Origin: Escherichia coli
GTDB lineage: Bacteria > Pseudomonadota > Gammaproteobacteria > Enterobacterales > Enterobacteriaceae
Assembly (NCBI RefSeq): GCF_002854065.1
Contig: NZ_CP024147.1
Reading direction: 5' to 3' (one strand)
DNA: 64,000 nt
Shown here in pieces: positions 1-44,172 of this stretch (positions are counted from its first letter, which is position 1; each line of letters begins with the position of its first letter). The notes under the pieces were generated by a model. The model ran no database searches, was not told where the DNA came from, and saw only the letters and a list, made by a program, of their open reading frames with translations. Both the position numbers and the translations under genes were made by a program.

Positions 1-72
1 CGCGGCGTCCGGTCCGATATGGCGTTCAATAAAAGCGCCGCTGTTTTCAAGCTGGCTTAACGTCTGTGTCAT
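1..72 (-). CDS. gcvP: glycine dehydrogenase (decarboxylating) GcvP, first 24 codons only; gene continues beyond window start
   Basis: Minus-strand translation from ATG at 70-72 reads [24 protein letters not shown]; position downstream of gcvH fits gcvTHP operon. Confidence 0.85.
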
Positions 73-190
73 GAGCGATGGTTCCTGAAACGTGCAGTGA
101 ATTGTGAACCTCTCTCCTTGCGAAGAGAGTGAGGGTGAGGCATAAATTTTCCTCACCCTGATCCTCTCCCGCAGAAGAGGAATAAAGCCG

Positions 191-580
191 TTACTCGTCT
201 TCTAACAATGCTTCGTATGCGGTCGCATCCAGCAGTGATTCCAGTTCGCTTTCATCGCTGGCTTTGATTTTAAAGATCCAGCCACCTGCATACGGTTCGC
301 TGTTCACCAGTTCCGGGGAATCGCTCAGTGCGTCGTTTACCGCCACGATTTCACCGCTTACTGGCGCATAAATGTCTGACGCCGCTTTTACTGATTCGGC
401 AACCGCGCAGTCATCGCCCGCGCTAACCGTTGCGCCTACTTCCGGCAGGTCAACAAACACCATATCGCCTAACAGCTCCTGAGCGTGTTCGGTGATGCCA
501 ACGGTATAAGTGCCGTCGGCTTCTTTACGCAGCCATTCGTGTTCTTTGCTGTATTTCAGTTCTGCTGGTACGTTGCTCAT
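191..580 (-). CDS. gcvH: glycine cleavage system H protein (lipoyl carrier)
   Basis: ORF 191..583; product [17 protein letters not shown]... 129 aa from second Met; recognised GcvH. Confidence 0.95.
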
Positions 581-603
581 CAATCAATCTCCAAAAAAGT
601 AAA

Positions 604-1698
604 TCACGCGACGGCTTTGCCGTTACGCACAAAAACAGGTTTCGTCACTTTAACCGGCATTTCACGGTTGCGAATTTGCACAATCGCTGTTTCACCAATA
701 CCTTCCGGCACGCGCGCCAGCGCAATGCTGTAACCCAGCGTCGGGGAGAAAGTCCCGCTGGTGATAATGCCTTCATGCTGGTTGCCCTGCGCATCGGTAA
801 AACGTACCGGCAGTTCATTACGCAGCACGCCTTTTTCGGTCATCACCAGACCAACCAGTTTTTCTGTGCCATGTTCACGCTGCGCTTCCAGAGCTTCACG
901 ACCGATAAAGTCACGATCTGCCGGTTCCCAGGCGATGGTCCAGCCCATGTTGGCGGCTAAAGGAGAGATGGTTTCGTCCATCTCCTGACTATACAAATTC
1001 ATGCCTGCTTCCAGACGCAGCGTGTCACGCGCGCCCAGGCCGCATGGCTTAACGCCCGCTTCCACCAGCGCGCGCCAGAAATCCGCCGCTTTTTCATTGG
1101 GCAGCGCAATTTCATAGCCCGCTTCACCGGTATAACCAGTGGTGGCAATAAACAGATCCCCCGCCTGCACGCCAAAGAACGGTTTCATCCCTTCCACCGC
1201 CTGACGCTGGGCGTCATTAAACAGTGTGGCAGCTTTTGCCTGCGCATTCGGCCCTTGTACGGCGATCATGGAAAGGTCATCACGAACGGTAATTTCGATG
1301 CCGAAAGGTTCAGCGTGTTGGGTAATCCAGGAGAGGTCTTTTTCGCGGGTGGCGGAGTTAACAACGAGGCGGAAGAAATCTTCAGTAAAGTAGTAGACGA
1401 TGAGATCATCTATCACACCGCCAGAGGCATTCAACATCCCCGAGTAAAGGGCTTTGCCGCTTTTGGTGAGCTTCGCCACATCGTTCGCCAGCAGATAACG
1501 CAGAAACTCCCGGGTGCGGCTGCCGCGGAGATCGACGATGGTCATATGCGACACATCAAACATTCCGGCATCGGTACGTACCGCATGATGTTCGTCGATT
1601 TGCGAACCGTAATGCAGCGGCATCATCCAGCCGTGGAAATCCACCATGCGAGCGCCGCAAAGCGTGTGTTGTTCGTACAAAGGAGTCTGTTGTGCCAT
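604..1698 (-). CDS. gcvT: glycine cleavage system T protein (aminomethyltransferase)
   Basis: 364-aa [27 protein letters not shown]...; recognised GcvT; upstream of gcvH. Confidence 0.95.
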
Positions 1699-2145
1699 CT
1701 TGTCCTCATTGAATAAGCGGGGCTGACAACTTTTTCATGGTGAAATTATCACCACAAAACCCAGCATCGGAGCCACTCCCGGTCCCCAACGCAATCGTTC
1801 TCTTTTGCCTGAACTTACCACCGAAACAGACTGTTAACCATAAGGTAAAATTGATCATCACATTAGCTTATGGTTAAAAAATGCAAAAATCGCGACAGAA
1901 TAAAAAACCAAAAAACACACCAGTTTCTATACAAAGATGATGTGATGAGAAAGTCAATTTGAATAAGACAATATTAAGAGCTAAAAAAATGTCAAAAAAC
2001 ACTAAATCAAAAAATCATGGCATTAGAAAATATAATGCGAAAACGGAGGTGAAATTAGTTTATTTCAAATGAGGAAAATCTCCCGGCGAAAAAACCGGGA
2101 GATGAAAGTGTGATGCGTATCAAATAAACAGCAGAAGAGAAATTT

Positions 2146-3348
2146 TTAACGCAGCCATTCAGGCAAATCGTTTAATCCCATTGCCTGACGGATAAGTTGT
2201 GGCTTAACGCCAGGAAGCGTGTCGGCCAGTTTCAAACCAATATCACGCAGCAGTTTTTTCGCCGGATTGGTACCGGAAAACAGATCGCGGAATCCCTGCA
2301 TACCAGCCAGCATCAGCGCCGCGCTGTGCTTGCGGCTACGTTCATAGCGGCGCAGGTAAATGTACTGCCCGATGTCTTTACCCTGACGATGCAACCGTTT
2401 CAGTTCAGCAATCAGCTCTGCGGCGTCCATAAAGCCGAGATTAACGCCCTGCCCCGCCAGTGGGTGAATGGTATGCGCGGCGTCGCCCACCAGCGCCAGA
2501 CGATGTGCGGCAAACTGGCGCGCATAACGCCCCGTCAGCGGGAACACCTGACGCTCGCTCTCAACCTTGCATAAGCCCAGGCGATTATCAAAAGCGATAT
2601 TTAACGCGCGATTAAATTCGTCTTCCCCTGCCTGCTGCATCCGCTGCGCTTCCTCTGGCGACAGCGACCAGACAATCGAGCAAAGATGCGGATCGCTAAG
2701 CGGCAAAAAGGCCAGAATGCCTTCGCCGTGGAAAACCTGCCGCGCCACCGCATCATGCGGTTCTTCCGTGCGTATGGTCGCTACCAGCGCGTGATGCTGA
2801 TAATCCCAGAAAGTCAGTGGAATATCGGCTTTGTTGCGCAACCAGGAATTAGCGCCGTCCGCGCCAATCACCAGACGCGCCGTTAACATACTGCCATCTT
2901 TCAGCGTCAGGAAGGTTTCGTTTTCTCCCCAGGCGACCTGCTGTAATTCTGCGGGGGCCAACAGAGTGATATCTGACGCCTGCTGCGCTTTGTTCCACAG
3001 CGCGTAGTGAATCACTGAGTTTTCAACGATATGCCCAAGATGGCTATAGCCCATGCTTTGATCGTCAAACGAAATGTGACCAAAACTGTCTTTGTCCCAC
3101 ACTTCCATGCCGTGATAGCAACTGGCCCTACGAGAGAGAATGTCCTGCCAGACGCCAAGACGGGTGAGTAATTTTTCGCTGGCGGCATTGATAGCCGAAA
3201 CGCGCAGTTGTGGTGGTGCATCCGCCGCCAGAGGTTCCGGTACGCGCTGCTCCAGTATGGCAACGCGTAAGCCGCTCCCCTGTAAGCCGCAGGCAACCGC
3301 CAGCCCCACCATGCCGCCGCCAACAATGGCTACATCAACACTTTGCAT
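2146..3348 (-). CDS. ubiI: FAD-dependent 2-octaprenylphenol hydroxylase UbiI (VisC)
   Basis: 400-aa ORF with N-terminal FAD motif VAIVGGGMVGLA; UbiH-paralog; conserved position. Confidence 0.9.
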   Translation of the reverse strand: MQSVDVAIVGGGMVGLAVACGLQGSGLRVAILEQRVPEPLAADAPPQLRVSAINAASEKLLTRLGVWQDILSRRASCYHGMEVWDKDSFGHISFDDQSMGYSHLGHIVENSVIHYALWNKAQQASDITLLAPAELQQVAWGENETFLTLKDGSMLTARLVIGADGANSWLRNKADIPLTFWDYQHHALVATIRTEEPHDAVARQVFHGEGILAFLPLSDPHLCSIVWSLSPEEAQRMQQAGEDEFNRALNIAFDNRLGLCKVESERQVFPLTGRYARQFAAHRLALVGDAAHTIHPLAGQGVNLGFMDAAELIAELKRLHRQGKDIGQYIYLRRYERSRKHSAALMLAGMQGFRDLFSGTNPAKKLLRDIGLKLADTLPGVKPQLIRQAMGLNDLPEWLR

Positions 3349-3370
3349 TGTTTATTCCTTAAAACCGCCT

Positions 3371-4549
3371 TCAACGCGCCACCCAACCGAGGGTGCGCTG
3401 CGCCAGCACATCGCGTGCCGGGGTGAATAATTCCATCGTCATCAGCCCGATGTTGCGCCCGACAACCAGTGGCGTCCAACGGTTGGCAAAAAGATGTACA
3501 AGGCTGTCCGTGACGCCAATGGTTGCTTCGCGATCGCTCTGTCGACGCTGCTGATAACGACACAATACGCCGTAATCACCCATGTCTTCTCCGCGCTCCT
3601 GCGCCTGAGTCAGGGTTTCCGCAAGGCTCATCACATCACGCATACCGAGATTAAATCCTTGCCCAGCGATGGGGTGCAGAGTTTGCGCCGCATTGCCCAC
3701 CAGCACGGTACGATGGGTAATAGGTTTAGCGGCGCGGGTTAACGCCAGCGGATAAGCACTGCGTTTACCGGCGTGGGTAATTTGCCCCAGTCGCCAGCCA
3801 AAGGCAGACTGGAGTTCACGGCAAAACTTCTCGTCGCTCCACGACAGCACCTCTTCGCGCCGTTCCAGTGGATGACACCAGACCAGCGAACAGCGTCCGT
3901 CAGACATCGGCAACATCGCCAGCGGGCCATGTTGCGTAAAGCGTTCAAACGCGCGGCCTTCGTGCGCAACAGAAGTCGCAACGTTGGCAATCACTGCCAG
4001 TTGTTCGTAAGGCTCCTGCTGCCAGTCAACGCCGCACACAGTGGCTAACGCTGAATGGGTGCCATCAGCGGCTACCAGCACGCGGCCCGTCAGCGTCTCG
4101 CCACACTCCAGCGTCACTTCAACATGACTCTGAGTACGGGCAACGTTAGCCACGCGATCCGGGCAATGCAGCGTTACGCCAGGTGCTTTGCGCAGCAATG
4201 CAAACAGTCGTTGCCCGACATTGTGCAATTCGACAACCTGCCCCAGCGCCGCCAGTTGGTAATCTTCTGCGGCGAGGGTGACGAATCCGGCATGACCACG
4301 ATCGCTGACTTGCACGGTAGTGATGGCGGTTGCGCAATCAGCCAGAGATTGCCAGACGCCGATGCGCGCCAGTTGCTGACAGGTCCCCGCCGCTAGAGCA
4401 ATAGCTCGTCCATCAAAGCCCGGATGAGCATGTGACTCTGGCGCGGTCGCTTCAATCAAATGTACCGGCAGCGCTCCGTGACTTAACCGGGAAATAGCCA
4501 GCGCCAGCGTCGCGCCCGCCATGCCGCCACCGACGATGATTACGCTCAT
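3371..4549 (-). CDS. ubiH: 2-octaprenyl-6-methoxyphenol hydroxylase UbiH
   Basis: 392-aa ORF MSVIIVGGGMAGATLALA...; FAD monooxygenase; overlaps pepP stop by 4 nt. Confidence 0.92.
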   Translation of the reverse strand: MSVIIVGGGMAGATLALAISRLSHGALPVHLIEATAPESHAHPGFDGRAIALAAGTCQQLARIGVWQSLADCATAITTVQVSDRGHAGFVTLAAEDYQLAALGQVVELHNVGQRLFALLRKAPGVTLHCPDRVANVARTQSHVEVTLECGETLTGRVLVAADGTHSALATVCGVDWQQEPYEQLAVIANVATSVAHEGRAFERFTQHGPLAMLPMSDGRCSLVWCHPLERREEVLSWSDEKFCRELQSAFGWRLGQITHAGKRSAYPLALTRAAKPITHRTVLVGNAAQTLHPIAGQGFNLGMRDVMSLAETLTQAQERGEDMGDYGVLCRYQQRRQSDREATIGVTDSLVHLFANRWTPLVVGRNIGLMTMELFTPARDVLAQRTLGWVAR

Positions 4550-5871
4550 TGCTTTCTCGCAGCTGCCATCAACGCTTCGATTTCTTCCGGCTTTTTCACC
4601 ACGCTGGCGGTGAGGTTTTCGTTACCGGTTTCGGTAATCACAATGTCGTCTTCAATACGAATGCCGATACCGCGATATTGTTCTGGCACTTCTGCATCCG
4701 GCGCAATATACAGCCCTGGCTCTACGGTCAGTACCATGCCCGGTTCCAGAATGCGCGAGCGATCCTGACCATAAACACCCACGTCATGGACATCCAGTCC
4801 TAACCAGTGGCTAAGGCCATGCATAAAGAAAGGACGATGGGCGTTCTGAGCGATCAGTTCATCAACATCACCTTTCAGGATGCCGAGTTTTACCAGGCCG
4901 CTAACCATGATGCGCACCACTTCACCGGTGACTTCCTGAATGGAAGTTCCCGGACGATACAGGCGCAGGCTGGTTTCGAGAGACTCCAGCACAATGTCGT
5001 AGATTTCACGCTGAGCCTGAGTGAATTTGCCGTTGACCGGGAAGGTGCGGGTAATATCGCCAGCGTAACCTTTGTATTCGCAACCCGCGTCAATCAACAC
5101 CAGATCGCCGTCGTGCAGTTCACACTCGTTTTCGGTGTAATGCAGAATGCAGCCGTTTTCACCGCTGCCGACAATGGTGTTATAGGAAGGATAGCGCGCG
5201 CCGTGGCGGTTAAATTCGTGGTGAATTTCGCCTTCCAGGTGGTACTCGAACATTCCCGGACGGCATTTTTCCATCGCCCGGGTATGCGCCAGGGCGGTGA
5301 TTTCACCCGCGCGGCGAAGTACGGCAATCTCTTCCGGCGATTTGAACAGGCGCATTTCATGAACAATGGGACGCCAGTCGATCATCGTTGCCGGCGCGGT
5401 GAGATTTTGCCGCGAACCTTTACGCAGTTTCTCAAGCGCGCTGTTCACGATTTCATCAGCATATGCATATTCGCCCTGGGCGTGGTAAACCACATCCAGA
5501 CCATTAAGTAGTTGATAAAGTTGCTGATTAATTTCGCTGAATGCCAGTGCGCGGTCAACGCCCAGTTTCTCTGGCGCGGCATCCTGACCTAAACGACGGC
5601 CAAACCAGATCTCCGCCGTCAGGTCGCGAACGCGGTTAAACAGAACGCTGTGGTTATGAGTGTCATCGCTTTTAATCAGCACCAGCACCGCTTCCGGTTC
5701 GTTAAAGCCGGTGAAGTACCAGAAGTCACTGTTCTGACGATAGGGGTATTCGCTGTCGGCGCTACGTGTTACTTCTGGTGCAGCAAAAATCAGCGCGGCG
5801 CTGCCGGGTTGCATTTGCTCCACCAGGGCCTGACGGCGACGCTGAAACTCTTGCCGGGATATCTCACTCAT
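4546..5871 (-). CDS. pepP: Xaa-Pro aminopeptidase (aminopeptidase P II)
   Basis: Track ORF 4546..6084 trimmed to internal Met (MSEISRQEFQRRRQAL...) giving 441 aa; M24 peptidase motifs. Confidence 0.92.
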   Translation of the reverse strand: MSEISRQEFQRRRQALVEQMQPGSAALIFAAPEVTRSADSEYPYRQNSDFWYFTGFNEPEAVLVLIKSDDTHNHSVLFNRVRDLTAEIWFGRRLGQDAAPEKLGVDRALAFSEINQQLYQLLNGLDVVYHAQGEYAYADEIVNSALEKLRKGSRQNLTAPATMIDWRPIVHEMRLFKSPEEIAVLRRAGEITALAHTRAMEKCRPGMFEYHLEGEIHHEFNRHGARYPSYNTIVGSGENGCILHYTENECELHDGDLVLIDAGCEYKGYAGDITRTFPVNGKFTQAQREIYDIVLESLETSLRLYRPGTSIQEVTGEVVRIMVSGLVKLGILKGDVDELIAQNAHRPFFMHGLSHWLGLDVHDVGVYGQDRSRILEPGMVLTVEPGLYIAPDAEVPEQYRGIGIRIEDDIVITETGNENLTASVVKKPEEIEALMAAARKQ

Positions 5872-7013: not shown

Positions 7014-7199
7014 ATTTCTCTGAGATGTTCGCAAGCGGGCCAGTCCCCTGAGCCGATATTTCATACCACAAGAATGTGGCGCTCCGCGGTTGGTGAGCAT
7101 GCTCGGTCCGTCCGAGAAGCCTTAAAACTGCGACGACACATTCACCTTGAACCAAGGGTTCAAGGGTTACAGCCTGCGGCGGCATCTCGGAGATTCCCT
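7014..7199 (+). ncRNA. ssrS: 6S RNA (RNA polymerase sigma70 holoenzyme regulator)
   Basis: Sequence ATTTCTCTGAGATGTTCGCAAGCGGGCCAGTCCCCTGAGCCGATATTTCATACCACAAGAATGTGGCGCTCCGCGG... matches the remembered E. coli 6S RNA; lies between zapA and fau as in the zapA-ssrS-fau operon. Confidence 0.9.
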
Positions 7200-7820: not shown

Positions 7821-7874
7821 GGGCGACACACCTGCATCGCCCTGATTGACATCGTTGATTCTTTGACCTAATTT

Positions 7875-8020
7875 AGTGAGTAAGGGTAAGGGAGGATGAC
7901 TCCTCCCCTGAGACTGACTGTTAATAAGCTGGGAAACTTATGAGTAACAGTACAATCAGTATGATGACAAGTCGCATCATAACCCTTCTCCTTCAAGCCC
8001 TCGCTTCGGTGAGGGCTTTA
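7875..8020 (+). ncRNA. sibC: SibC antitoxin sRNA (type I toxin-antitoxin; approximate ends)
   Basis: Antisense to the ibsC ORF; contains Sib-like GGGAGG repeats (aagggtaagggaggatgactcctcccctga) and a 3' hairpin agccctcgcttcggtgagggct at 7996-8017; located between fau and serA. Confidence 0.6.
7921..7980 (-). CDS. ibsC: type I toxin IbsC (19-aa hydrophobic peptide)
   Basis: Minus-strand ORF atgatgcgacttgtcatcatactgattgtactgttactcataagtttcccagcttattaa = MMRLVIILIVLLLISFPAY; not in the supplied ORF track (too short). Confidence 0.8.
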   Translation of the reverse strand: MMRLVIILIVLLLISFPAY

Positions 8021-21029: not shown

Positions 21030-21140
21030 TTGTCATGCCGGATGCGGCGTGAACGCCTTATCCGGCCTACAAAAACCTGCGAATTCAATATATTGCAGGA
21101 TACGTGTAGGCCTGATAAGCGTAGCGCATCAGGCAATTTT
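21030..21140. repeat. REP/BIME palindromic repeats in mscS-fbaA intergenic region
   Basis: gccggatgcggcgtgaacgccttatccggcctac ... gtaggcctgataagcgtagcgcatcaggc; typical REP consensus. Confidence 0.85.
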
Positions 21141-23705: not shown

Positions 23706-24725
23706 TTACCTGAAAGCAACAGTAGCCATAGCTAACGTCGTGTCGAGCATTCGGTTAGCAAAGCCCCATTCGTTATCGCACCAGACCAACGTTTTGATCA
23801 GGTGTGCGCCACTGACCCGGGTTTGGGTGCCATCGACAATGGCACTGTGCGGATCGTGGTTAAAATCTACAGAGACCAACGGCAATTCCGTATAGTCAAC
23901 TATACCATGAAATGCACCTTGTGCTGCTTTTTGCAGCAACAGGTTGACTTCATTGGCTTTTACAGGTTTCTTCACCGTCACGCTTAAATCGATTGCCGTC
24001 ACATTTATGGTTGGCACACGTACCGCAATCGCTTCAAAGCGATCGTTAAATTGCGGAAAAAATCGTGTGATACCGGCGGCCAGTTTAGTATCGACCGGAA
24101 TGATCGACTGGCTGGCTGCCCGGGTGCGACGCAGGTCAGGATGGTATGCATCAATAACCTGTTGATCGTGCATGGCGGAGTGAATTGTGGTCACAGTGCC
24201 GGACTCAATACCGTACGCATCATCTAACAATTTGATGACGGGAATTATGCAATTCGTGGTACAGGAAGCGTTAGAAACGATGCGGTGTTCCGCACGAAGT
24301 TGATCCTGATTGACGCCGTAAACAACGGTCGCGTCGAGATCGTTACTGCCAGGATGTGAAAAGAGCACTTTTTTGGCCCCGGCGGCAATATGCGCTTCGC
24401 CATGCTCGCGGGAGCCATATACGCCGGTGCAGTCGAGGACTACATCAACGCCAAGTTCACGCCAGGGGAGCGATTGCAGTGAACGTTCATGCAATACGCG
24501 GATGGCGTCATCACCAACAAAAAGTTGATCGCGTTCCTGTCGTACTTCCCATGCAAAACGGCCATGGCTGGTGTCATATTTCAACAAATGCGCCATGCCC
24601 GCAGCATCCGCCAGTTCGTTGATTGCCACCACGGTAATTTCCGCCCGGCGTCCGGATTCATACAAAGCACGAACCACATTACGCCCGATGCGACCGAAGC
24701 CATTTATCGCTACGCGTACGGTCAT
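23706..24725 (-). CDS. epd: D-erythrose-4-phosphate dehydrogenase
   Basis: Track ORF 23706..24809 trimmed to [30 protein letters not shown]... (339 aa); GAPDH family. Confidence 0.93.
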
Positions 24726-25099
24726 AGATCTCCTGCAAGGTTTTCCCTGAGCAAATTTGCCAGACAGAGTAATCCAGCAAATCGTCCGGGGAAACCTTAC
24801 CTGTCGCAAACTGCGACTGATTGGTTAATTGTCGAACATTTAATCGACTGAAACGCTTCAGCTAGGATAAGCGAAACGTGGAATAAAAGGAATGATTGTC
24901 CAGTCAAAGAAGACAATTATCTGACTTACGTCACGTTTTCAGCCCCGCCCCTGTGGAATTTATTCCACTTTGCAGAATCACGAATAAGCGTAGCAAAATC
25001 TTTTCGTTGTGCCGTCACAAACCCTGACTTATATCAGAATATGACTGATGCAGCGTCGATATTATCCGCAATACGTCCGAGTTTCGGAGTACTCCAATG

Positions 25100-25528
25100 A
25101 TGACATTGCCCTACCCATATTCTTCCTCCGCACGCTTTTACGCACTGCGCCTCCTCCCCGGGCAGGAAGTTTTTTCCCAGCTACACGCTTTTGCACAGCA
25201 GCAGCAACTTCATGCCGCCTGGATTGCAGGCTGTACCGGTAGCCTGACTGACATCGCCTTGCGCTATGCCGGGCAAGAAGGCACCACGCTCCTGAACGGT
25301 ACATTCGAAGTGATCTCACTAAACGGCACGTTGGAACAGAGTGGTGAGCATCTTCATCTCTGCGTTTCCGATCCACACGGCACGATGCTTGGCGGTCATA
25401 TGATGCCCGGCTGTACCGTGCGGACCACGCTTGAACTGGTGATCGGTAGCCTTGAGGAACTGGCGTTTAGCCGCCAACCTTGCGCGCTTTCTGGTTACGA
25501 CGAGTTGCATATTTCCCCCGTTAAATAA
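25100..25528 (+). CDS. DUF296 (PPC domain) protein; first gene of accessory transporter operon
   Basis: 142-aa ORF MTLPYPYSSSARFYALRLLPGQEVFSQL...GEHLHLCVSDPHGTMLGGHMMPGCTVRTTLELVIG; PPC/DUF296-like pattern; 22 nt upstream of next gene. Confidence 0.6.
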   Translation: MTLPYPYSSSARFYALRLLPGQEVFSQLHAFAQQQQLHAAWIAGCTGSLTDIALRYAGQEGTTLLNGTFEVISLNGTLEQSGEHLHLCVSDPHGTMLGGHMMPGCTVRTTLELVIGSLEELAFSRQPCALSGYDELHISPVK

Positions 25529-25550
25529 CTACTTTCAGAGAGGTTTTCTT

Positions 25551-26129
25551 ATGGCGCGTAGCCACTTTTCCAGTCAGGCGCTGGTGTTAATCGTTATATC
25601 TATCGCCATCAATATGATCGGCGGGCAACTGGCCAGCATGGTCAAATTACCTATATTTCTCGACTCCATCGGCACACTTATTAGCGCGGTACTGCTTGGT
25701 CCGGTGATCGGGATGCTGACCGGTTTACTGACCAATTTACTCTGGGGATTGCTGACCGACCCGATCGCCGCCGCATTTGCGCCCGTGGCGATGGTCATCG
25801 GCCTGGTCGCCGGTTGGCTGGCGCGAGCGGGTTGGTTCCGCACCCTGCCAAAAGTCGTTGTCAGCGGCGTGATTATTACGCTTGCGGTAACGGTCGTCGC
25901 TGTACCGCTGCGTACTGCGCTGTTCGGCGGTGTCACCGGTAGCGGAGCCGATTTGTTCGTTGCCTGGATGCACTCGATGGGGCAAAACCTGGTGGAGTCG
26001 GTGGCGATTACGGTGATAGGCGCGAACCTGGTCGATAAAACTCTTACAGCGGTGATTGTCTGGCTTTTACTGCGCCAGCTGCCGATTCGCACCACGCGCC
26101 ATTTTCCGGCAATGGCTGCCGTGCGCTAA
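25551..26129 (+). CDS. ECF-type transporter substrate-specific (S) membrane component, substrate unknown
   Basis: Track ORF 25452..26129 trimmed to ATG 25551 after RBS agagagg; 192 aa, about five hydrophobic helices; stop overlaps next start (TAAATG). Confidence 0.6.
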   Translation: MARSHFSSQALVLIVISIAINMIGGQLASMVKLPIFLDSIGTLISAVLLGPVIGMLTGLLTNLLWGLLTDPIAAAFAPVAMVIGLVAGWLARAGWFRTLPKVVVSGVIITLAVTVVAVPLRTALFGGVTGSGADLFVAWMHSMGQNLVESVAITVIGANLVDKTLTAVIVWLLLRQLPIRTTRHFPAMAAVR

Positions 26130-26837
26130 ATGCATCCATTTACCTCATTAACACTATGGGCATTGGCGGCCTGCACCACGCTTATCCTGCCCGCGCAGAC
26201 CATTTTGCCGATCTATAGCGCGGCGACCTTTTTTTGCCTTATTGCGCTAAAGGCCACGCGGCGGCGGGCAAAATATGTCGCCTGGCTGATGTTCTCGCTG
26301 GGAGCCGGGCTGTGGCTGGTACACGGTGGCTGGCTAACAGAATGGCTAAGCGGCACGCCGCGTTCGCCGGAGCGTTGGACGCATGCTATTACGCTCTGGT
26401 TGCGGATTCTGGCGATTGTTTCAACCTCACAGTTGTGGATGCAGTACGTCCCCGTGCAATGTTTTATCCGCGCCCTGTTCGCCTCCCGCCTGCCGCCGGG
26501 CGTCGCTTATCTGTTTGCCGGGCCGTTATTGGTCGTTGAGCAATTAAAACGGCAATTAGCGATTATCCATGAAGCGCAGCGCGCCCGCGGCGTGCCGCTT
26601 GATGAAGGCTGGTATCAGCGTTTACGCGCGATGCCCGCATTAATTATTCCGCTAACACACAATGCGCTAAACGATCTTGCTGTCCGTGGTGCGGCGCTGG
26701 ATATGCGGGCATTTCGGATCCACAACCGACGAACAACGTTGTGGGCACCAGCCGATAGCACCCTACAACGCGTAGCGCGTTACACCATGATCTTGCTGAT
26801 GCTGACAGAATTCGGAGCGTGGATATGGTTACGTTAG
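26130..26837 (+). CDS. ECF/cobalt-type transporter transmembrane (T, CbiQ-like) component
   Basis: 235-aa polytopic membrane ORF; operon position between S component and ATPases. Confidence 0.6.
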   Translation: MHPFTSLTLWALAACTTLILPAQTILPIYSAATFFCLIALKATRRRAKYVAWLMFSLGAGLWLVHGGWLTEWLSGTPRSPERWTHAITLWLRILAIVSTSQLWMQYVPVQCFIRALFASRLPPGVAYLFAGPLLVVEQLKRQLAIIHEAQRARGVPLDEGWYQRLRAMPALIIPLTHNALNDLAVRGAALDMRAFRIHNRRTTLWAPADSTLQRVARYTMILLMLTEFGAWIWLR

Positions 26838-27502
26838 AACAGTTCCGTTATTGCCCGACACACTCAACGCATCCTCCGTTCTGTTATGACTTTCACTATG
26901 TCAAACCGGGGATGGTCGCCATCTTTGGTGACAACGGCAGTGGCAAAAGTACGCTGGCGCAACTGATGGCGGGCTGGTATCCGGACTTTCTGCCTGGAGA
27001 GATTGCAGGCACGGGAACGCTCCTCGGTACGCCCGTTGGGCATCTCCCGCTTAATGAACAATCCGCCACCATCCAGCTCGTCCAGCAATCGCCCTATTTG
27101 CAGCTCTCCGGCTGTACCTTTAGCGTGGAAGAAGAAGTTGCCTTTGGGCCAGAAAATCTGTGTCTTGCTGAAGCAGAGATTATGGCGCGGATTGATGCCG
27201 CCCTGACTCTGACCGAGTGCCAGCCGTTGCGCCATCGTCACCCGGCAACACTCTCCGGTGGAGAGACACAGCGCGTGGTCATCGCCTGCGCCATCGCGAT
27301 GCAGCCAAAGCTATTAATTCTTGATGAAGCCTTTAGCCGCCTGACGCCGCAGGCCAGCGAAATGCTGTTGCAGCGCTTACAACACTGGGCGTTTGAACGT
27401 GGTTCGCTGATTATTCTTTTTGAACGTCATCGCACACCTTTCCTGAACTACTGCCAGCAAGCGTGGCAATTGCAAAACGGAGCGCTCCAGCCACTATGTT
27501 AA
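26825..27502 (+). CDS. ABC/ECF transporter ATPase subunit 1 (canonical motifs)
   Basis: Walker A GDNGSGKST, signature LSGGETQR, Walker B LLILDEAF; alternative GTG start at 26819. Confidence 0.8.
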   Translation: MVTLEQFRYCPTHSTHPPFCYDFHYVKPGMVAIFGDNGSGKSTLAQLMAGWYPDFLPGEIAGTGTLLGTPVGHLPLNEQSATIQLVQQSPYLQLSGCTFSVEEEVAFGPENLCLAEAEIMARIDAALTLTECQPLRHRHPATLSGGETQRVVIACAIAMQPKLLILDEAFSRLTPQASEMLLQRLQHWAFERGSLIILFERHRTPFLNYCQQAWQLQNGALQPLC

Positions 27503-28173
27503 CGTTAAATCAGATAACTTATCGCTGGCCTGACGCGGCAACGGATTGTCTTTGCGACATTTCTCTGCAACTCAAACAAGGTGAATGGTTGGCTCTGACC
27601 GGCGACAATGGTGCAGGAAAATCGACGCTGTTACGAGTAATGGCAGGTCTTCTTACGCCCACAGCCGGTACGGTTATGCTGCAACAACAGGCGATGAAAA
27701 ACCTGAAAAACCGCCAGCGCGCGGCAAAGGTTGGCGTACTGTTTCAGGAAGCGGAAAACCAGCTTTTTCACAGCACCGTCGCTGACGAGATCGCATTTGG
27801 TTTGAAACTGCAAAAATGCCCGGCGGATGAAATCACTCAACGTACCAATGCTGCCCTGCAATGCTGTCAGTTAGCAGACACTGCCAGCGCGCACCCGTTG
27901 GATCTGCATAGTGCGCAGCGACGGATGGTCGCCGTCGCCTGCCTGGAAGCACTCTCTCCGCCACTATTGCTGCTGGACGAGCCGAGTCGGGATTTTGACG
28001 AAAATTGGTTGAGCGTGTTTGAAAGCTGGCTGGAGAAGTGCCGCCAGCGAGGCACGAGCGTCGTAGCAATCAGTCATGACGCCGCATTTACCCGGCGTCA
28101 TTTCTCTCGTGTGGTGCGACTGGAAGATGGTCTAATCAGGAACATTAATCCACCAGACGATATTCACCCGTAG
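27496..28173 (+). CDS. ABC/ECF transporter ATPase subunit 2 (degenerate signature motif)
   Basis: Track ORF 27463..28173 trimmed to ATG 27496 (ATGTTAA overlap with upstream stop); Walker A GDNGAGKST, Walker B LLLDEP, signature replaced by LHSAQRR. Confidence 0.75.
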   Translation: MLTLNQITYRWPDAATDCLCDISLQLKQGEWLALTGDNGAGKSTLLRVMAGLLTPTAGTVMLQQQAMKNLKNRQRAAKVGVLFQEAENQLFHSTVADEIAFGLKLQKCPADEITQRTNAALQCCQLADTASAHPLDLHSAQRRMVAVACLEALSPPLLLLDEPSRDFDENWLSVFESWLEKCRQRGTSVVAISHDAAFTRRHFSRVVRLEDGLIRNINPPDDIHP

Positions 28174-28858
28174 CGGTCATCATTAAGGTCAAATTTGCAG
28201 GTAGACTCTCTTCCAGCACCCGGCGAACATTCGGCCCGTCGGTACGGTCATAAAAAGCTTCTGCGTCTGCCAGCGATACCCCTCCCGCCAGCTTGCGCCC
28301 TACCAGTCGTTCCCGCAACGCAGTAGCTGGCGCGTTGATAAAGATCGAGAATTCACAAAATTGCGCAAGCTGGCACCACTTCTCGTCGTCCAGCAACAAC
28401 CAGTTTCCTTCGACGATGACGAGTGGTGCGGTAACGTGCAACGCATCTTCAACAGGATCATGCTTTTGTCGATCGTACTGCGGCCACGTACAATCCCCTT
28501 CCACGACCTGGCGTAGATTTTCCGCCAGTTTCGCAACGTCAAATGTCTCTGGTGCGCCTTTGAAGGGGCGCAATTGATGCGCATCCAGCCAGCTATTGTA
28601 ATGGTGAAAACCATCCATCGGCAGCGTCTGAATAGCGGGCAGTTCCGGGTCTTGTTGCGCGAGATATTCCCAGAAGGTGGTTAGGGTTGATTTACCCGTC
28701 CCCGGCGGAGCGCAAAGAAAAACCACCGTACGCCGCTGCGGATTTACCGTCTGTAAGGCCGCCAACATGTGCAGCAACGGTTTATGTACATTTTCAATCT
28801 CTTCGTTCTGGTACTGTGCCTGTATCTTCAGCCCATTCACCGTTAATTCAATTTTCAC
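28145..28858 (-). CDS. yggC: P-loop nucleoside/pantothenate kinase-like protein YggC
   Basis: 237-aa ORF with Walker A APPGTGKST; convergent with the ATPase gene. Confidence 0.85.
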   Translation of the reverse strand: MKIELTVNGLKIQAQYQNEEIENVHKPLLHMLAALQTVNPQRRTVVFLCAPPGTGKSTLTTFWEYLAQQDPELPAIQTLPMDGFHHYNSWLDAHQLRPFKGAPETFDVAKLAENLRQVVEGDCTWPQYDRQKHDPVEDALHVTAPLVIVEGNWLLLDDEKWCQLAQFCEFSIFINAPATALRERLVGRKLAGGVSLADAEAFYDRTDGPNVRRVLEESLPANLTLMMTATGEYRLVD

Positions 28859-33499: not shown

Positions 33500-33570
33500 A
33501 AATTATCCTTATTTTATTTTTAGGGTGCCGTCCGGCGGTAAAAATAAAATACTCGGGTAATGACTCCAAC

Positions 33571-34074
33571 TTATTGATAGTGTTTTATGTTCAGATAATG
33601 CCCGATGACTTTGTCATGCAGCTCCACCGATTTTGAGAACGACAGCGACTTCCGTCCCAGCCGTGCCAGGTGCTGCCTCAGATTCAGGTTATGCCGCTCA
33701 ATTCGCTGCGTATATCGCTTGCTGATTACGTGCAGCTTTCCCTTCAGGCGGGATTCATACAGCGGCCAGCCATCCGTCATCCATATCACCACGTCAAAGG
33801 GTGACAGCAGGCTCATAAGACGCCCCAGCGTCGCCATAGTGCGTTCACCGAATACGTGCGCAACAACCGTCTTCCGGAGACTGTCATACGCGTAAAACAG
33901 CCAGCGCTGGCGCGATTTAGCCCCGACATAGCCCCACTGTTCGTCCATTTCCGCGCAGACGATGACGTCACTGCCCGGCTGTATGCGCGAGGTTACCGAC
34001 TGCGGCCTGAGTTTTTTAAGTGACGTAAAATCGTGTTGAGGCCAACGCCCATAATGCGGGCAGTTGCCCGGCAT
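33571..34074 (-). CDS. insB: IS1 InsB' frame (expressed as InsAB' by -1 frameshift)
   Basis: 167-aa ORF overlapping insA 3' end; IS1 transposase catalytic region. Confidence 0.9.
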
Positions 34075-34268
34075 CCAACGCCATTCATGGCCATATCAAT
34101 GATTTTCTGGTGCGTACCGGGTTGAGAAGCGGTGTAAGTGAACTGCAGTTGCCATGTTTTACGGCAGTGAGAGCAGAGATAGCGCTGATGTCCGGCGGTG
34201 CTTTTGCCGTTACGCACCACCCCGTCAGTAGCTGAACAGGAGGGACAGCTGATAGAAACAGAAGCCAC
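33993..34268 (-). CDS. insA: IS1 InsA (transposition inhibitor / N-terminal part of InsAB' transposase)
   Basis: 91-aa [46 protein letters not shown]... Confidence 0.95.
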
Positions 34269-34653
34269 TGGAGCACCTCAAAAACACCATCATACACTAA
34301 ATCAGTAAGTTGGCAGCATCACCAAATACTCGTGCGGTTTAATGAAAGCAATTGGGTACGCGAGAAGAAAAACCCCATAAACCAAAATAATAAAACCTTA
34401 AATAACAACAATATGAAATTGATATCTTTAAAGTCAACTTTGTGTTTGTTATGTTTATCACAAAATCAACATTTTGTTTGTTATTGTATTTGTGATGCAT
34501 ATCTCTATTTATTTATTGAATGTTCGAAAACATACTTTTCTAATGCAATGTTTTTTCGCTATACCCCTTTATAGAATCTGAATTCTCACCTGTCGGCTGT
34601 TTTCTCCTCATCTCATGTGACATATTCCCACACTTTACTCAAGGAAGATTGTC

Positions 34654-35604: not shown

Positions 35605-35725
<121 letters not shown>

Positions 35726-38809: not shown

Positions 38810-38820
38810 GGCATGGTGGT

Positions 38821-39120
38821 GCCAAACGTAGTTCAGATAAGGCATTTACGCCGCATCTGACATAAATGGCACATTCACTACCTCGTGCGCATTGCCGGAT
38901 GCGATGCTGGCGCATCTTATCCGGCCTACGGGTGCCAAACGTAGGTCAGATAAGGCGTTCACCCCGCATCTGACATGAATGGCACATTTGTTACCTTGTG
39001 CGCATTGCCGGATGCGATGCTGGCGCATCTTATCCGGCCTACGGGTGCCGAACGTAGGTCGGATAAGGCGTTCACGCTGCATCCGACATTAATGGCACGT
39101 TTTACCCGTGCGCATCGCAT
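38821..39120. repeat. BIME cluster: about 2.6 tandem copies of a ~113-bp REP-containing unit
   Basis: Unit gccaaacgtag..cagataaggc..ccgcatctgacat..gcgcattgccggatgcgatgctggcgcatcttatccggcctacgggt repeated from 38821, 38934 and 39046. Confidence 0.9.
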
Positions 39121-40650: not shown

Positions 40651-40665
40651 GGTAATGACTCCAAC

Positions 40666-41169
40666 TTATTGATAGTGTTTTATGTTCAGATAATGCCCGA
40701 TGACTTTGTCATGCAGCTCCACCGATTTTGAGAACGACAGCGACTTCCGTCCCAGCCGTGCCAGGTGCTGCCTCAGATTCAGGTTATGCCGCTCAATTCG
40801 CTGCGTATATCGCTTGCTGATTACGTGCAGCTTTCCCTTCAGGCGGGATTCATACAGCGGCCAGCCATCCGTCATCCATATCACCACGTCAAAGGGTGAC
40901 AGCAGGCTCATAAGACGCCCCAGCGTCGCCATAGTGCGTTCACCGAATACGTGCGCAACAACCGTCTTCCGGAGCCTGTCATACGCGTAAAACAGCCAGC
41001 GCTGGCGCGATTTAGCCCCGACGTATCCCCACTGTTCGTCCATTTCCGCGCAGACGATGACGTCACTGCCCGGCTGTATGCGCGAGGTTACCGACTGCGG
41101 CCTGAGTTTTTTAAATGGCGGAAAATCGTGTTGAGGCCAACGCCCATAATGCGGGCGGTTGCCCGGCAT
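40666..41169 (-). CDS. insB: IS1 InsB' frame
   Basis: 167-aa ORF; differs from copy 1 at several residues ([22 protein letters not shown]...). Confidence 0.9.
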
Positions 41170-41363
41170 CCAACGCCATTCATGGCCATATCAATGATTT
41201 TCTGGTGCGTACCGGGTTGAGAAGCGGTGTAAGTGAACTGCAGTTGCCATGTTTTACGGCAGTGAGAGCAGAGATAGCGCTGATGTCCGGCAGTGCTTTT
41301 GCCGTTACGCACCACCCCGTCAGTAGCTGAACAGGAGGGACAGCTGATAGAAACAGAAGCCAC
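41088..41363 (-). CDS. insA: IS1 InsA
   Basis: 91-aa ORF; one residue differs from copy 1 (NTIFRHL vs NTILRHL). Confidence 0.95.
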
Positions 41364-41418
41364 TGGAGCACCTCAAAAACACCATCATACACTAAATCAG
41401 TAAGTTGGCAGCATCACC

Positions 41419-42058
41419 CTCATGGGGTTATACATCAGCCGGGATTTCAAAAGCCTTCGGTGATGATAAATATCAACAGCAGTATTTATCACAGCGCAGC
41501 GGGTTTGCTATAGGTGAGGATGGTTTTGCATGGGGCCGCATGGACTATGATTCCGCGCTAATTGTCGATGCTACGGATTTGCCCGAAGATCAGTATTTCG
41601 AGGTGCGTAATCGTAATTCGGCACCAACGATTGTAAAAGGTGGTCAGAAAACAACGCTTTCTATGGAGCCGTATCGTAAGGTCGCACCAGAAGCTGAACA
41701 ACTCTACAGCAATAATATGGATGCTTATTACAATCTGAAAACGGAGTCTACTTCTACCTGGGCGAAACCAGGGCAAGTTTATAAAGTTAAACTTTCCGCA
41801 ACCCGGAATCTGACCGTCACCGGACGCCTTTATTTTGACGGTCAACCGTTGATTAACGCCAGGGTCGTTGGTGGGAATGCAATGGCAGATACTGATGGCT
41901 TATTTGTTGGTGATTTTACACTCCAGACAAATGAACAACTTAAATCTGTGAAAGTTAAACAAGACGGGCGTGATTTCATCTGTCCACTGCTGGATGAAAA
42001 TATCAAACTTGCGCAGGGTATTATGCAAATTCGTGAGGTTAATTGTGAAGTTCAATAA
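41419..42058 (+). pseudogene. C-terminal fragment of fimbrial outer-membrane usher, 5'-truncated by IS1 copy 2
   Basis: Frame open from IS1 boundary; C-terminus ...KVKQDGRDFICPLLDENIKLAQGIMQIREVNCEVQ parallels the two-Cys usher tail of FimD (...VQVKWGEEENAHCVANYQLPPESQQQLLTQLSAECR) as I recall it. Confidence 0.55.
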
Positions 42059-42062
42059 ATGG

Positions 42063-42755
42063 ATGGCTCTTTTTTTAGGATTGTTGGCTGGGTTTTCTAC
42101 CGTAGCGCAAGCTATTGAGGTGTTTCCTATTGTAAAAGAAATAAAGGAAGAAACGCCAAGAGATAATTATATTACCGTTAAGTCTATGTTTAAGCTGAAT
42201 GATAAAGTTGATGTTCCAGAACCAGACAAACAGCAATATGAATTCGTTACGCTTGATCTCTATCACATAAAAAACCCAGGCGATAAAAAAGAAAATATGG
42301 AAAAGGAATTGGGGACGGAAAACCCTGCGCTGGTATTTTCACCGACCAAACTGGTTATTCCATTCGGTGAAGAAAGGAAAATTCGCATCATGCCTATGCG
42401 TCCGGTTGATCATGAAACGGTATACAGGCTGCGTGTACGACCAAGTTATCCGGAACAGGCCCTTGAAAAAGGGAAGGTCCGTTTTGCTATTGGATATGAT
42501 GTTTTAATTCGTTATCTCCCGTCAGGTAAGCACACTCAGGGGATACAGATTAGCTGTGATAAAAACAACTGGCATTTGAAAGCAACCGGTAATGTAAGAA
42601 GTGAATTACGTAAATTGGTGATTGATGGCCGGATGCAGGAGGGGAATTTCAATGTTTATCCGGAAAACAGCAGAACTCTTAACGTGAATAAACGTCTTTC
42701 CTTCGAAATGGATGGAAAAACGCTGGTTTACGAAAATTGTCTGCTTAAGGAGTAA
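42063..42755 (+). CDS. putative periplasmic fimbrial chaperone (PapD-like)
   Basis: Track ORF 41970..42755 trimmed to MALFLGLLAGFSTVAQA signal peptide; about 230 aa; RYLP-type motif (FAIGYDVLIRYLP); follows usher fragment. Confidence 0.45.
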   Translation: MALFLGLLAGFSTVAQAIEVFPIVKEIKEETPRDNYITVKSMFKLNDKVDVPEPDKQQYEFVTLDLYHIKNPGDKKENMEKELGTENPALVFSPTKLVIPFGEERKIRIMPMRPVDHETVYRLRVRPSYPEQALEKGKVRFAIGYDVLIRYLPSGKHTQGIQISCDKNNWHLKATGNVRSELRKLVIDGRMQEGNFNVYPENSRTLNVNKRLSFEMDGKTLVYENCLLKE

Positions 42756-42758
42756 TTC

Positions 42759-43649
42759 ATGCGCTCATGGTTCTGTTTAATTGCACTGTTGTTGCCTGGC
42801 ATTGTATTTGCGAGTGGTGAGATGATTATTCAGCCTCAAAGTAAGGGGGCGGTTCACTTCCTTGCCCGTGGTCTTTCTTCTGGCGGCGACAATATTATCT
42901 CTGCTGCTTACAGCGCCGGGCGGCCTCTGTCTGTTTTATTTAGCCCGACAGGAAACGGACATTGTGAGGGCGATTTTTTGGCTGTGGATCATCTCCGGTT
43001 GTCTGTTCAGCAAGCAGGTGAAAATACTTCTTATACCTGTGGCGTTCCGGTAACGATCGAAAGTCCTTCGAAGGATGGGATCCTGCGCCTTCAGTTAACG
43101 AACTCGACGTCTGTTCAGGATTTCTCCTCATTGATGAGAACAGACGGGGGCCTGAGACAGCAAATTGGTAATTTGCAAATAACCCAGCAAGGTAATGAAA
43201 GTTTTATTGTCCCGATTTATCTGGATCTCACTATTTTGCAGAATCAGGTGGTTACGATAGCTGCTTCATTTGAAAAGCCATCTCTTCAACTTGGGCTGGT
43301 AGGCCCGGAACATGATGCTTCAGAGACTGTGGGTCTGCGCGTCAGCAAAACATTACAGGCAGGTGAGGAGGCGATGCTTTATCGCGTAACATTTGAATCT
43401 TCTCAACTGAAGGATAATAGGTTCCATTTACTATCCTCTGTTGATCATCAGTTTATTCCTTATCAAATCTATATATCTGGTGTCGAAGTTACCCCTTCTC
43501 AGCCTTATGTAAGTGAGCTGCCGCAGGGAAAGGCAACTTCTGAATTGCTTGATGTAAGATTCAATTTGTCTGGCCGAGCTGTTCGTGGCATGGCTGCCGG
43601 TTCGCGCTTACTTGATACGGTAACCGCAGTAGTAACCCCGGAAAGTTAA
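42759..43649 (+). CDS. putative fimbrial tip adhesin or minor subunit (secreted, 296 aa)
   Basis: Signal peptide MRSWFCLIALLLPGIVFA; two Cys in N-terminal half; C-terminal beta-strand-like TVTAVVTP; operon position. Confidence 0.45.
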   Translation: MRSWFCLIALLLPGIVFASGEMIIQPQSKGAVHFLARGLSSGGDNIISAAYSAGRPLSVLFSPTGNGHCEGDFLAVDHLRLSVQQAGENTSYTCGVPVTIESPSKDGILRLQLTNSTSVQDFSSLMRTDGGLRQQIGNLQITQQGNESFIVPIYLDLTILQNQVVTIAASFEKPSLQLGLVGPEHDASETVGLRVSKTLQAGEEAMLYRVTFESSQLKDNRFHLLSSVDHQFIPYQIYISGVEVTPSQPYVSELPQGKATSELLDVRFNLSGRAVRGMAAGSRLLDTVTAVVTPES

Positions 43650-43662
43650 ACTGGAGAATAAA

Positions 43663-44172
43663 ATGAAATTAACTTTTTTACCTGTTGTGCTGTCGGTAGC
43701 ATTTTGTAGTCAGGTTCAGGCTGTTGTACCGGTCAAAACATCTATTGATGTGCAGGCTGAAATCAGTACTGCGGTTAATATTTATGTTAATGGCCAGGAT
43801 GTCACCAATAAATCTATCAGTGTCAATCTGAAAGATGAAGGTGGCTATATGAAAGGCAGTACGCCACCTTTCCAGTTTGTTGGCAACGCCAGTTCTGTTG
43901 CCCTTTCGCTCCAGGCTCCGCCAGCGAATGGGTTGGTCGGCCCTGAAAATAAAGTTATGCCTTTACTGACATCCTGGTTCAATCCGGATGCGAATGCTGA
44001 AGTTTCGACAAGTTTTCCCTTTTCAAATATCAAGGTTTATCCAACGTTACAGGACGTACCTGATCCACAGAATGGTGTAAAAGTGGTATTTCGCTCGAAG
44101 GAGCGTAGCGAAACTTTCCCCTTGGGAACATATAGCGGGACTTATACCGTTATTGTAACGCCATCAGTTTAA
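43663..44172 (+). CDS. putative fimbrial subunit (secreted, 169 aa)
   Basis: Signal peptide MKLTFLPVVLSVAFCSQVQA; pilin-like size; C-terminal alternating hydrophobic strand GTYSGTYTVIVTPSV. Confidence 0.45.
   Translation: MKLTFLPVVLSVAFCSQVQAVVPVKTSIDVQAEISTAVNIYVNGQDVTNKSISVNLKDEGGYMKGSTPPFQFVGNASSVALSLQAPPANGLVGPENKVMPLLTSWFNPDANAEVSTSFPFSNIKVYPTLQDVPDPQNGVKVVFRSKERSETFPLGTYSGTYTVIVTPSV

Follow-up and report, generated by a model that had tools for sequence, protein, structure and literature searches.

An operon of five genes, encoding an ECF-type (energy-coupling factor) importer together with a small metal-site protein, lies between epd and yggC in the stretch of Escherichia coli chromosome analysed here (64,000 nucleotides of contig NZ_CP024147.1, hereafter the window, covering the region ssrS … fbaA-pgk-epd … yggC-cmt). 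The small protein is made of a PCC domain (DUF296, also named PPC), and its gene is coupled, across phyla, to the gene of the substrate-specific (S) component of the importer. In sister lineages, the S component is found beside genes for nucleoside hydrolase and ribokinase. The locus itself is no discovery, since all five genes are named by PGAP, the ortholog of the PCC protein has been crystallised and the operon has been mentioned in print. What appears to be missing from the searchable literature is the cross-phylum coupling of PCC and S, the nucleoside hydrolase/ribokinase connection, and the argument that the labels ‘cobalt’ and ‘DNA-binding’ carried by these genes are unsupported.

The gap between epd and yggC holds five intact ORFs, all co-oriented on the + strand of the window. 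The genes are as follows:

23706-24725, - strand: epd
25097-25528, + strand: gene of the PCC/DUF296 (PPC domain) protein, 143 aa
25551-26129, + strand: gene of the ECF substrate-specific (S) component, 192 aa
26130-26837, + strand: gene of the ECF transmembrane coupling (T) component, 235 aa
26825-27502, + strand: gene of ABC ATPase 1 (A1), 225 aa
27496-28173, + strand: gene of ABC ATPase 2 (A2), 225 aa
28145-28858, - strand: yggC, convergent to the operon

An original prediction, made from the letters alone, had described a DUF296/PPC protein, S and T components and two ATPases between epd and yggC. The ORF list, the PGAP annotation and the Pfam and NCBIfam searches all agree with it, and the assignments to PF03479, PF12822, CbiQ (PF02361) and EcfA/CbiO-type ATPases were verified by profile search. 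The overlapping stop and start codons that it saw throughout the operon are found at T/A1 (13 nt) and A1/A2 (7 nt, ATGTTAA), but not at the other junctions: the PCC and S genes are separated by a 22-nt spacer with its own ribosome-binding site, GAGAGG, while the S and T genes abut (TAAATG). At the distal end, the A2 gene overlaps yggC by 29 nt. The GC content of the operon is 55%, as compared to 51-52% in the flanks. In strain XJ34, which is 100% identical over positions 24700-28300, PGAP annotates the identical five genes. Between genera, the S protein is 80-92% identical while the intergenic DNA diverges, and this conservation at the protein level indicates that the five genes are real and are not chance ORFs. 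A role in anti-phage defence was considered and rejected, as PADLOC returned nothing specific, only generic P-loop matches to the ATPases.

The S component matches ECF_trnsprt (PF12822) in Pfam at 8e-8 over residues 10-173. Its nearest curated model is NF045596, the ‘CD3073 family putative ECF transporter S component’ (134.9 bits, E 2e-39); with a cut-off of 180 bits for this model, the protein is a relative that stands outside the equivalog. An AlphaFold2 model of the S component (pLDDT 94.8) was compared with the PDB using Foldseek, and the top 17 matches were all vitamin-type S components, namely FolT, RibU, ThiT, HmpT, PanT and BioY, with a probability of 0.93-1.0 and a target-normalised TM-score of up to 0.69. 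No CbiM structure occurs among the Foldseek PDB matches of the model at E<=10. Similarly, the S component has no match to CbiM/NikM (PF01891) in NCBIfam or Pfam, and no gene for CbiN/NikN/L/K is present among the operon ORFs.

The T component is matched weakly by CbiQ (PF02361, 1.7e-4 over residues 10-197). It is named ‘energy-coupling factor transporter transmembrane component T’ by PGAP, its orthologs in related loci are labelled CbiQ, and the coupling motifs QRARG and AVRG can be read from its translation. The best models for the ATPases (TIGR04520, TIGR04521 and TIGR01166) score from 1e-34 to 6.5e-44. A1, with its canonical Walker A, LSGGE signature and Walker B, matches ECF_ATPase_1 (TIGR04520) at 1e-34 and cbiO at 8e-31 in NCBIfam, and A2 matches ECF_ATPase_2 (TIGR04521) at 6.5e-44, all of these staying under the equivalog cut-offs. 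In the translation of A2, the signature motif is degenerate, reading LHSAQ instead of LSGGQ; therefore, one of the two composite ATP sites of the A1/A2 pair is probably non-catalytic. Both ATPases are of about 225 aa, as against 246-286 aa for the ATPases of more distant relatives.

The operon very probably encodes a functional ECF importer of group I, the dedicated kind. As in the group I transporters BioMNY, YkoEDC, QrtTUVW and HtsTUV, one operon holds an S component, a T component with Ala-Arg-Gly-type motifs and two ATPases, no extracytoplasmic binding protein is involved, and the S fold is that of FolT, RibU, ThiT, PanT and BioY. The E. coli system differs from them in that its S component falls outside every characterised specificity family, its ATPases are both short (225 aa), one of them with the degenerate signature, and the operon has a candidate FNR-like promoter, not a riboswitch. 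It also has a conserved cytoplasmic PCC/DUF296 gene, of which the characterised systems have none. With CbiMNQO and NikMNQO, it shares the matches of its T component and ATPases to CbiQ and CbiO models, and Co2+ import has been suggested in print for the Salmonella ortholog (PMC11481890). However, by sequence as by fold, the S component of E. coli belongs to the vitamin type, and neither a CbiM/NikM-type S component nor CbiN/NikN is present. The original prediction had named two findings that would overturn it, the same operon in K-12 MG1655 or a classical ABC importer with a known substrate; K-12-type genomes lack the operon, the membrane proteins are of the ECF type, and neither the ORF list nor PGAP gives a binding-protein gene in the operon.

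The protein encoded by the first gene is a single PCC domain over its full length (PF03479, 4e-28 in Pfam), with a pI of 5.5 and a net charge of -6. Its Salmonella ortholog (7e-75) has been crystallised as 2HX0/2NMU; members of the PCC family crystallise as trimers. Among 63 ECF-linked PCC orthologs, the residues R18, P21, G48, S49, R56, A58, E71, G77, H85, H87, G95, H101, T110, T111, E113, R126, E136 and L137 are invariant. In the model of the E. coli protein (pLDDT 94.7), H85 and H87 share a strand, with H101 on the strand next to it, and the invariant H85-x-H87...H101, with E71 and E113, makes up a candidate metal site.

The structural neighbours of the PCC protein are enzymes, and its fold is like that of acetolactate decarboxylase (ALDC). 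The zinc of ALDC has His-x-His…His as its ligands, and Glu, Arg and Thr are close by (PMC9090609). The fold of the PCC protein resembles that of ALDC and PTD012, zinc enzymes of the AF0104/ALDC/PTD012-like fold. ALDC itself, however, is a two-domain protein of about 235 aa with a three-His zinc site, whereas the PCC protein is half that size, has no detectable sequence similarity to it and belongs outside the family. As no sequence link between PCC and ALDC could be found even at E<=10, the similarity is at the level of the fold only.

The company kept by the S component was studied through a profile search, which gave 740 related clusters at E<=1e-10, and through a scan of 80 loci, with one genome per species. 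The scan used a 12-sequence alignment of S, a 50-sequence alignment being too diverse. Fifty of the loci carry an S component at least 49% identical to that of E. coli (clade 1), and they come from Enterobacterales, Aeromonas, Synergistaceae, Rhizobiales, Paracoccus, Desulfobulbaceae, Laribacter, Wohlfahrtiimonas and some Chloroflexi. In all 50, a PCC gene is situated 14-151 nt upstream of the S gene. When S components at least 47% identical are counted, the rule is kept in 50 of 51 loci; the sole exception, in Kaistia (L056, S 47% identical), is a solitary S gene between two nucleoside hydrolases. The PCC-adjacent loci form a monophyletic group in a neighbour-joining tree, and the Kaistia locus is the basal sister of this group. 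Clustering of the neighbouring genes gave no conserved partner in clade 1 besides PCC, apart from a YedF-like gene in Chloroflexi. The original prediction had called the substrate not evident, and PCC is the only neighbour of the S gene that is conserved across the taxa of clade 1.

It is in the sister clade that a metabolic context is seen. This clade is formed by 29 loci, mostly of Chloroflexi and some of Bacillota, with S components 39-45% identical to that of E. coli. In about 21 of the 29, a nucleoside hydrolase like RihA/RihC/UriH (8e-82) lies immediately upstream of S, and at least 10 loci have a bona fide ribokinase (367 bits, the cut-off being 300). A PCC gene occurs within 1-4 kb in 15 loci, and three of the loci (L063, L068 and L078) have same-strand arrays in the order PCC-hydrolase-S-T-A-A. 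Similar arrangements are found in independent metagenomic relatives outside the 80 loci, one with a LacI-PfkB pair and three hydrolases before S-T-A-A and another with a hydrolase and S-T-A.

A comparable layout has been described for the salvage of queuosine and queuine in Clostridioides difficile, which employs the nucleoside hydrolase QueK and the ECF S component QrtT/QueT (PMC11130926). There, an S component importing a nucleoside is encoded beside a hydrolase of the IU type, and the sister-clade loci have the same hydrolase and S layout. Unlike those clusters, the loci examined here showed no queuosine genes (tgt, queL); the ribokinase and the multiple hydrolases of the sister clade point instead to bulk nucleoside catabolism, and the E. 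coli operon has no hydrolase. In the literature on nucleoside ECF importers, only the queuosine work was found, and searches for CD3073, and for DUF296 together with ECF, gave nothing relevant.

Some other arrangements were observed in the same survey. A YedF-C-terminal-like protein of about 118 aa (matching the C-terminal half of TIGR03527, 4e-31) is encoded beside the PCC-ECF module in 8 of 8 clade 1 Chloroflexi loci, upstream of PCC in L043, L054, L055, L057 and L060, and downstream in L040, L053 and L061. On a metagenome contig (L004, positions 70-4937), PCC is followed by two S genes, a fused T-A-A gene (684 aa) and a third S gene; from this gene content, a single ECF module and a single PCC gene serve three S paralogs, whose identity to the S component of E. 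coli is 44-55%. Single-chain S-T fusions occur as well (P0155, P0164, P0172 and P0183), and S domains are also fused to PAS/histidine-kinase modules (P0211, P0218 and P0230), being apparently membrane ligand sensors.

The regulation of the operon was approached through its leader, which contains the following elements:

24935-25096, + strand: operon promoter and leader, defined by BLAST against the K-12-like strain 8A, the K-12 junction and a 13-genus leader alignment
24953-24968, no strand: perfect palindrome GTGGAAT-TT-ATTCCAC (GTGGAATTTATTCCAC), from the sequence and the leader alignment
25024-25037, + strand: FNR-like box CTGACTTATATCAG, with 7 of 10 consensus positions and a phylogenetic footprint
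25060-25065, + strand: candidate -10 hexamer TATTAT, read from the sequence and conserved as TATATTATC
25076-25088, + strand: inverted repeat TCCGA-GTT-TCGGA, overlapping the Shine-Dalgarno GGAG at 25086-25089

The FNR-like box was scored against the consensus TTGAT-N4-ATCAA. In Salmonella, Citrobacter, Kluyvera and Atlantibacter, it reads CTGATTTATATCAG and agrees at 8 of 10 positions; altogether, 8/10 boxes were seen in six other genera, at a conserved position and with the correct spacing to TATTAT. When the epd-PCC intergenic regions of 13 Enterobacteriaceae are aligned, the cTGATttatATCAg box and TATATTATC are conserved amid otherwise variable sequence. Judged from the hexamer, transcription would start at about 25072 (some 7 nt past the -10), which would put the centre of the box near -41.5, the class II position. 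Of 15 Enterobacteriaceae loci, 11 have an FNR-like site with at most two mismatches between -70 and -78 relative to the start codon, whereas 18% of shuffled upstream regions have any such site. The support for the box is from phylogenetic footprinting and not from the single E. coli match, and it is from the leader sequences that we infer control by FNR. With a candidate FNR-type box at the predicted class II position, the operon should be switched on in the absence of oxygen. This agrees with published observations in Salmonella, where the counterpart is described as a putative five-gene, anaerobically activated ECF operon (PMC11481890, 2024). That study places it among genes which, in an acrB mutant, are activated early and mostly depend on FNR, and it states that SalComMac data suggest anaerobic activation of the operon. 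A sigma-54 site has been reported inside Salmonella STM3072 (PMC3844500); it is absent, within 2 mismatches, from the counterpart gene of E. coli.

The 5' untranslated region predicted from the putative start is of about 25 nt, which would be too short for a riboswitch. The original prediction had recognised no riboswitch in the leader, and the Rfam scan bears this out: no family matched at the gathering score, nor at E<=10 bar one noise match at E=3. The inverted repeat at the Shine-Dalgarno sequence is found in most other genera as TCCGAG-T-CTCGGA. The palindrome GTGGAATTTATTCCAC was considered as an operator and rejected, since it is not conserved beyond Escherichia; only its TTTATTCCA half is conserved in other genera, this half is kept in K-12, and an inverted partner of it, GGAATAAA, is located at about 24880-24887. 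The epd-proximal half of the intergenic region (24840-24935), common to K-12, has a conserved Cra-like box, CTGAAACGCTTCAG, and a CRP-like box on the reverse strand, TGTGACGTAAGTCAGA, just past which the homology to K-12 breaks.

The operon is present (at least 80% of the segment) in 3319 of 5426 complete E. coli genomes, i.e., 61%. The remaining genomes, among them K-12 (O16:H48) and B derivatives, match at the epd end only. As the original prediction had stated, epd and yggC are neighbours in K-12-type genomes, 284 bp apart and without the operon. Its description of the operon as ‘accessory’ overstates the rarity. The claim that the operon was inserted at this site does not stand, as the identical five genes adjoin epd in Salmonella and in 20 Enterobacteriaceae loci, with Citrobacter, Kluyvera, Atlantibacter, Pseudescherichia, Superficieibacter, Phytobacter and E. 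albertii among the taxa. The Salmonella counterpart is STM3071-STM3075, STM3071 being the protein of PDB 2HX0/2NMU. In S. enterica subsp. enterica, tktA comes after the operon, where E. coli has the yggC-cmt cluster. Insertion by a mobile element was rejected, since neither flanking repeats nor an integrase nor a GC anomaly was found and the position is conserved in other genera.

The K-12 allele differs in yggC as well. In comparison with the K-12-type sequence (strain 8A BLAST and the K-12 junction), homology fades from 24934 to about 24970 and resumes inside yggC at about 28214, but the sequence stays strongly diverged until about 28386. The part concerned is:

28145-28386, - strand: 3' third of yggC, varying together with the operon's presence or absence; strongly diverged where the allele is that of K-12 (BLAST)

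In protein alignment, K-12 differs over the C-terminal ~65 residues of YggC, where the window, E. albertii, Citrobacter and S. diarizonae mutually agree. There are, accordingly, two deeply diverged alleles of the YggC C-terminus, which track the presence or absence of the ECF operon. This divergence suggests a replacement through recombination long ago and not a clean deletion, and in the K-12 spacer between epd and yggC no remnants of the operon were found beyond the TTTATTCCA motif. Because the epd-adjacent position is shared, the GC content is unremarkable and the YggC allele of K-12 is odd, the operon-less state is the derived one: a deletion or allelic replacement which also rewrote the 3' third of yggC. 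The operon is very probably ancestral to Enterobacteriaceae at the epd site and was lost in K-12.

For the function of the operon, the explanation favoured here is that of an FNR-induced anaerobic ECF importer of a ribonucleoside-like cargo, with the PCC protein binding or converting the cargo. Taken as a whole chain, it is held tentatively, at somewhat less than an even chance. Under anaerobiosis, the FNR-type promoter would induce the five-gene transcript. The six-helix S component would bind a ribonucleoside or a closely related ribosylated small molecule, and the T component with the A1/A2 heterodimer would drive the toppling of S and the release of the cargo into the cytoplasm. There, the PCC protein, made from the first cistron, would most probably be a metal-dependent enzyme or a partner which holds or acts on the cargo, and not a DNA-binding regulator. 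The operon would thus serve the anaerobic scavenging of nutrients in the gut phase, and K-12, along with about 39% of E. coli, would have lost it by deletion or replacement. A broader proposal, that bacterial PCC proteins are metal-dependent enzymes or cargo partners of an unrecognised family of ribonucleoside ECF importers, of which the epd-linked operon is an FNR-induced nucleoside scavenger lost in K-12, is possible but rather doubtful.

Several observations weigh against this explanation. No nucleoside-metabolism gene is conserved beside the operon in the E. coli clade; neither the nucleoside hydrolase nor the ribokinase occurs in the E. coli operon or in any of the 50 PCC-adjacent loci. 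The same-strand neighbours in clade 1 are mixed, with CopZ and a CopA-type ATPase in Synergistaceae, pyrD in Laribacter, and sugar-binding proteins. Distant S relatives are located beside thiamine genes (35% identity) or beside MtnK/MtnA-like genes (the CD3073 type), and another adjoins a putative 2-thiouracil desulfurase; from such varied contexts, the specificity is not uniform across the wider S family. As S specificity drifts fast, a sister clade of 40-45% identity is only moderate evidence for the cargo of the E. coli clade. The FNR-like box of E. coli has three mismatches, and the 299 such matches in the window, against ~253 expected, are not significant alone; moreover, a positionally conserved FNR box was not found outside the Enterobacteriaceae among the loci scanned. 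An FNR-controlled importer with a His-rich partner would equally fit a Ni/Co system. We know of no biochemical function for any bacterial PCC protein, so that DUF296 is still without an established function, as the original prediction had noted.

A Co2+/Ni2+ importer used under anaerobiosis, with the His cluster of PCC as a metal sensor, regulator or metallochaperone, is thus one alternative. It has been advocated for Salmonella: PMC11481890 cites a 2018 PhD thesis on STM3071 in which, according to that citation, Co2+ import was proposed with STM3071 as the regulator, and the same paper lists the operon beside nik genes among those activated anaerobically. The invariant three-His/Glu site on a fold like that of zinc enzymes would suit such a role, the FNR-type promoter resembles nik regulation, and the CopZ gene and heavy-metal P-type ATPase gene of Synergistaceae are found downstream in two loci. 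The S component, however, is not CbiM/NikM by NCBIfam or Pfam, no CbiN/NikN/L/K accompanies it and all its structural neighbours are of the vitamin type. Across the S family, Asn, Asp, Thr, Lys, Gly and Pro residues are conserved, but no His, Cys or Met is. The S and PCC module is also found inside nucleoside hydrolase/ribokinase operons of the sister lineages, where a metal cargo would make no sense. The ‘cobalt’ names of the T component and ATPases are generic for ECF modules, and the label ‘cobalt transport’ is probably misleading. The published Co2+ suggestion is therefore weakly supported, and a metal cargo is considered quite improbable. An organic micronutrient is a better contender, and yet an unlikely one. 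In this case, the cargo would be a vitamin or cofactor precursor, or a metabolite containing sulfur or selenium, PCC would be the converting enzyme and the nucleoside link of the sister clade would reflect a different specificity. To our knowledge, the characterised S components of the PF12822 type all carry vitamins or their precursors, which speaks for it, as do the thiamine, MtnK/MtnA-like and desulfurase neighbours of the distant relatives, the YedF-like gene (linked to selenium metabolism) with PCC in Chloroflexi, and the sulfonate-ABC and Cys/Met-PLP genes that are neighbours in Rhizobium. But none of the 50 PCC-adjacent loci has a linked riboswitch or vitamin-pathway gene, on either side of the clade the closest outgroups are tied to nucleoside hydrolases, and PCC itself is found in operons with the hydrolase.

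Whichever cargo is carried, PCC could also be the DNA-binding transcriptional regulator of the operon. Both PGAP and PDB name it ‘PPC domain-containing DNA-binding protein’; in the E. coli clade its gene opens the operon, in the sister clade it sometimes stands apart as a convergent gene, and a perfect palindrome is present in the E. coli leader. The ‘DNA-binding’ name, however, is derived from the plant AHL proteins, in which the AT-hook contacts DNA and not the PPC domain. No AT-hook and no second domain was found in the 63 PCC orthologs, and the 143 aa of the E. coli protein, all of them one PCC domain, have no RGRP, no helix-turn-helix and no extra domain. All 63 orthologs are acidic (median pI 5.4, maximum 6.65), the fold neighbours are enzymes, and the palindrome is restricted to Escherichia. 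The modelled fold and its conserved residues favour a metal-site enzyme or a ligand-binding protein rather than a DNA binder; the label ‘DNA-binding protein’ is probably misleading, and a regulatory role is very unlikely.

Elsewhere in the window, two directly oriented copies of IS1 were observed at 33556-34323 and 40651-41418 (768 bp, 99% identical, 7095 bp apart); the ORF at 40666-41169 matches IS1 transposase at 6e-42. XJ34 has no IS1 at the first of these sites and carries an IS200C which is not in the window, and its co-linearity ends at the second copy. Directly past this copy (41400-46800), there is a run of + strand ORFs without NCBIfam match and then TssC, the large sheath subunit of type VI secretion (45246-46793, 8e-204). 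The type VI secretion island seems to occupy the place where XJ34 continues with the lipoprotein gene that comes after speB, and next with speA and metK. A 113-nt unit is tandemly duplicated at 38818-39043 (two copies, 92% identical). Other Rfam matches at the gathering score are located at 7014-7197, 7846-7996, 21071-21113, 35633-35675 and 61480-61550, the families being 6S RNA, Sib antitoxin RNA, ES036 (CssrF, two copies) and naRNA4.

Among Proteobacteria, ECF transporters are rare, and the K-12 model strain has none; a conserved enterobacterial system has thereby escaped genetics. Most E. coli, Salmonella and Citrobacter carry the operon, which is apparently switched on anaerobically, as in the gut. 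The coupling of PCC with S and the link to nucleoside hydrolase and ribokinase make two ‘unknown function’ annotations experimentally approachable. Should the cargo be nucleosides or a modified nucleoside, strains would differ, through this operon, in a trait of nutrient acquisition relevant to colonisation. A nucleoside importer of this kind would add a new cargo class to the ECF transporters of Proteobacteria. If PCC is its partner, the prokaryotic PPC domain, also present in the AHL regulators of plants, would gain its first biochemical function.

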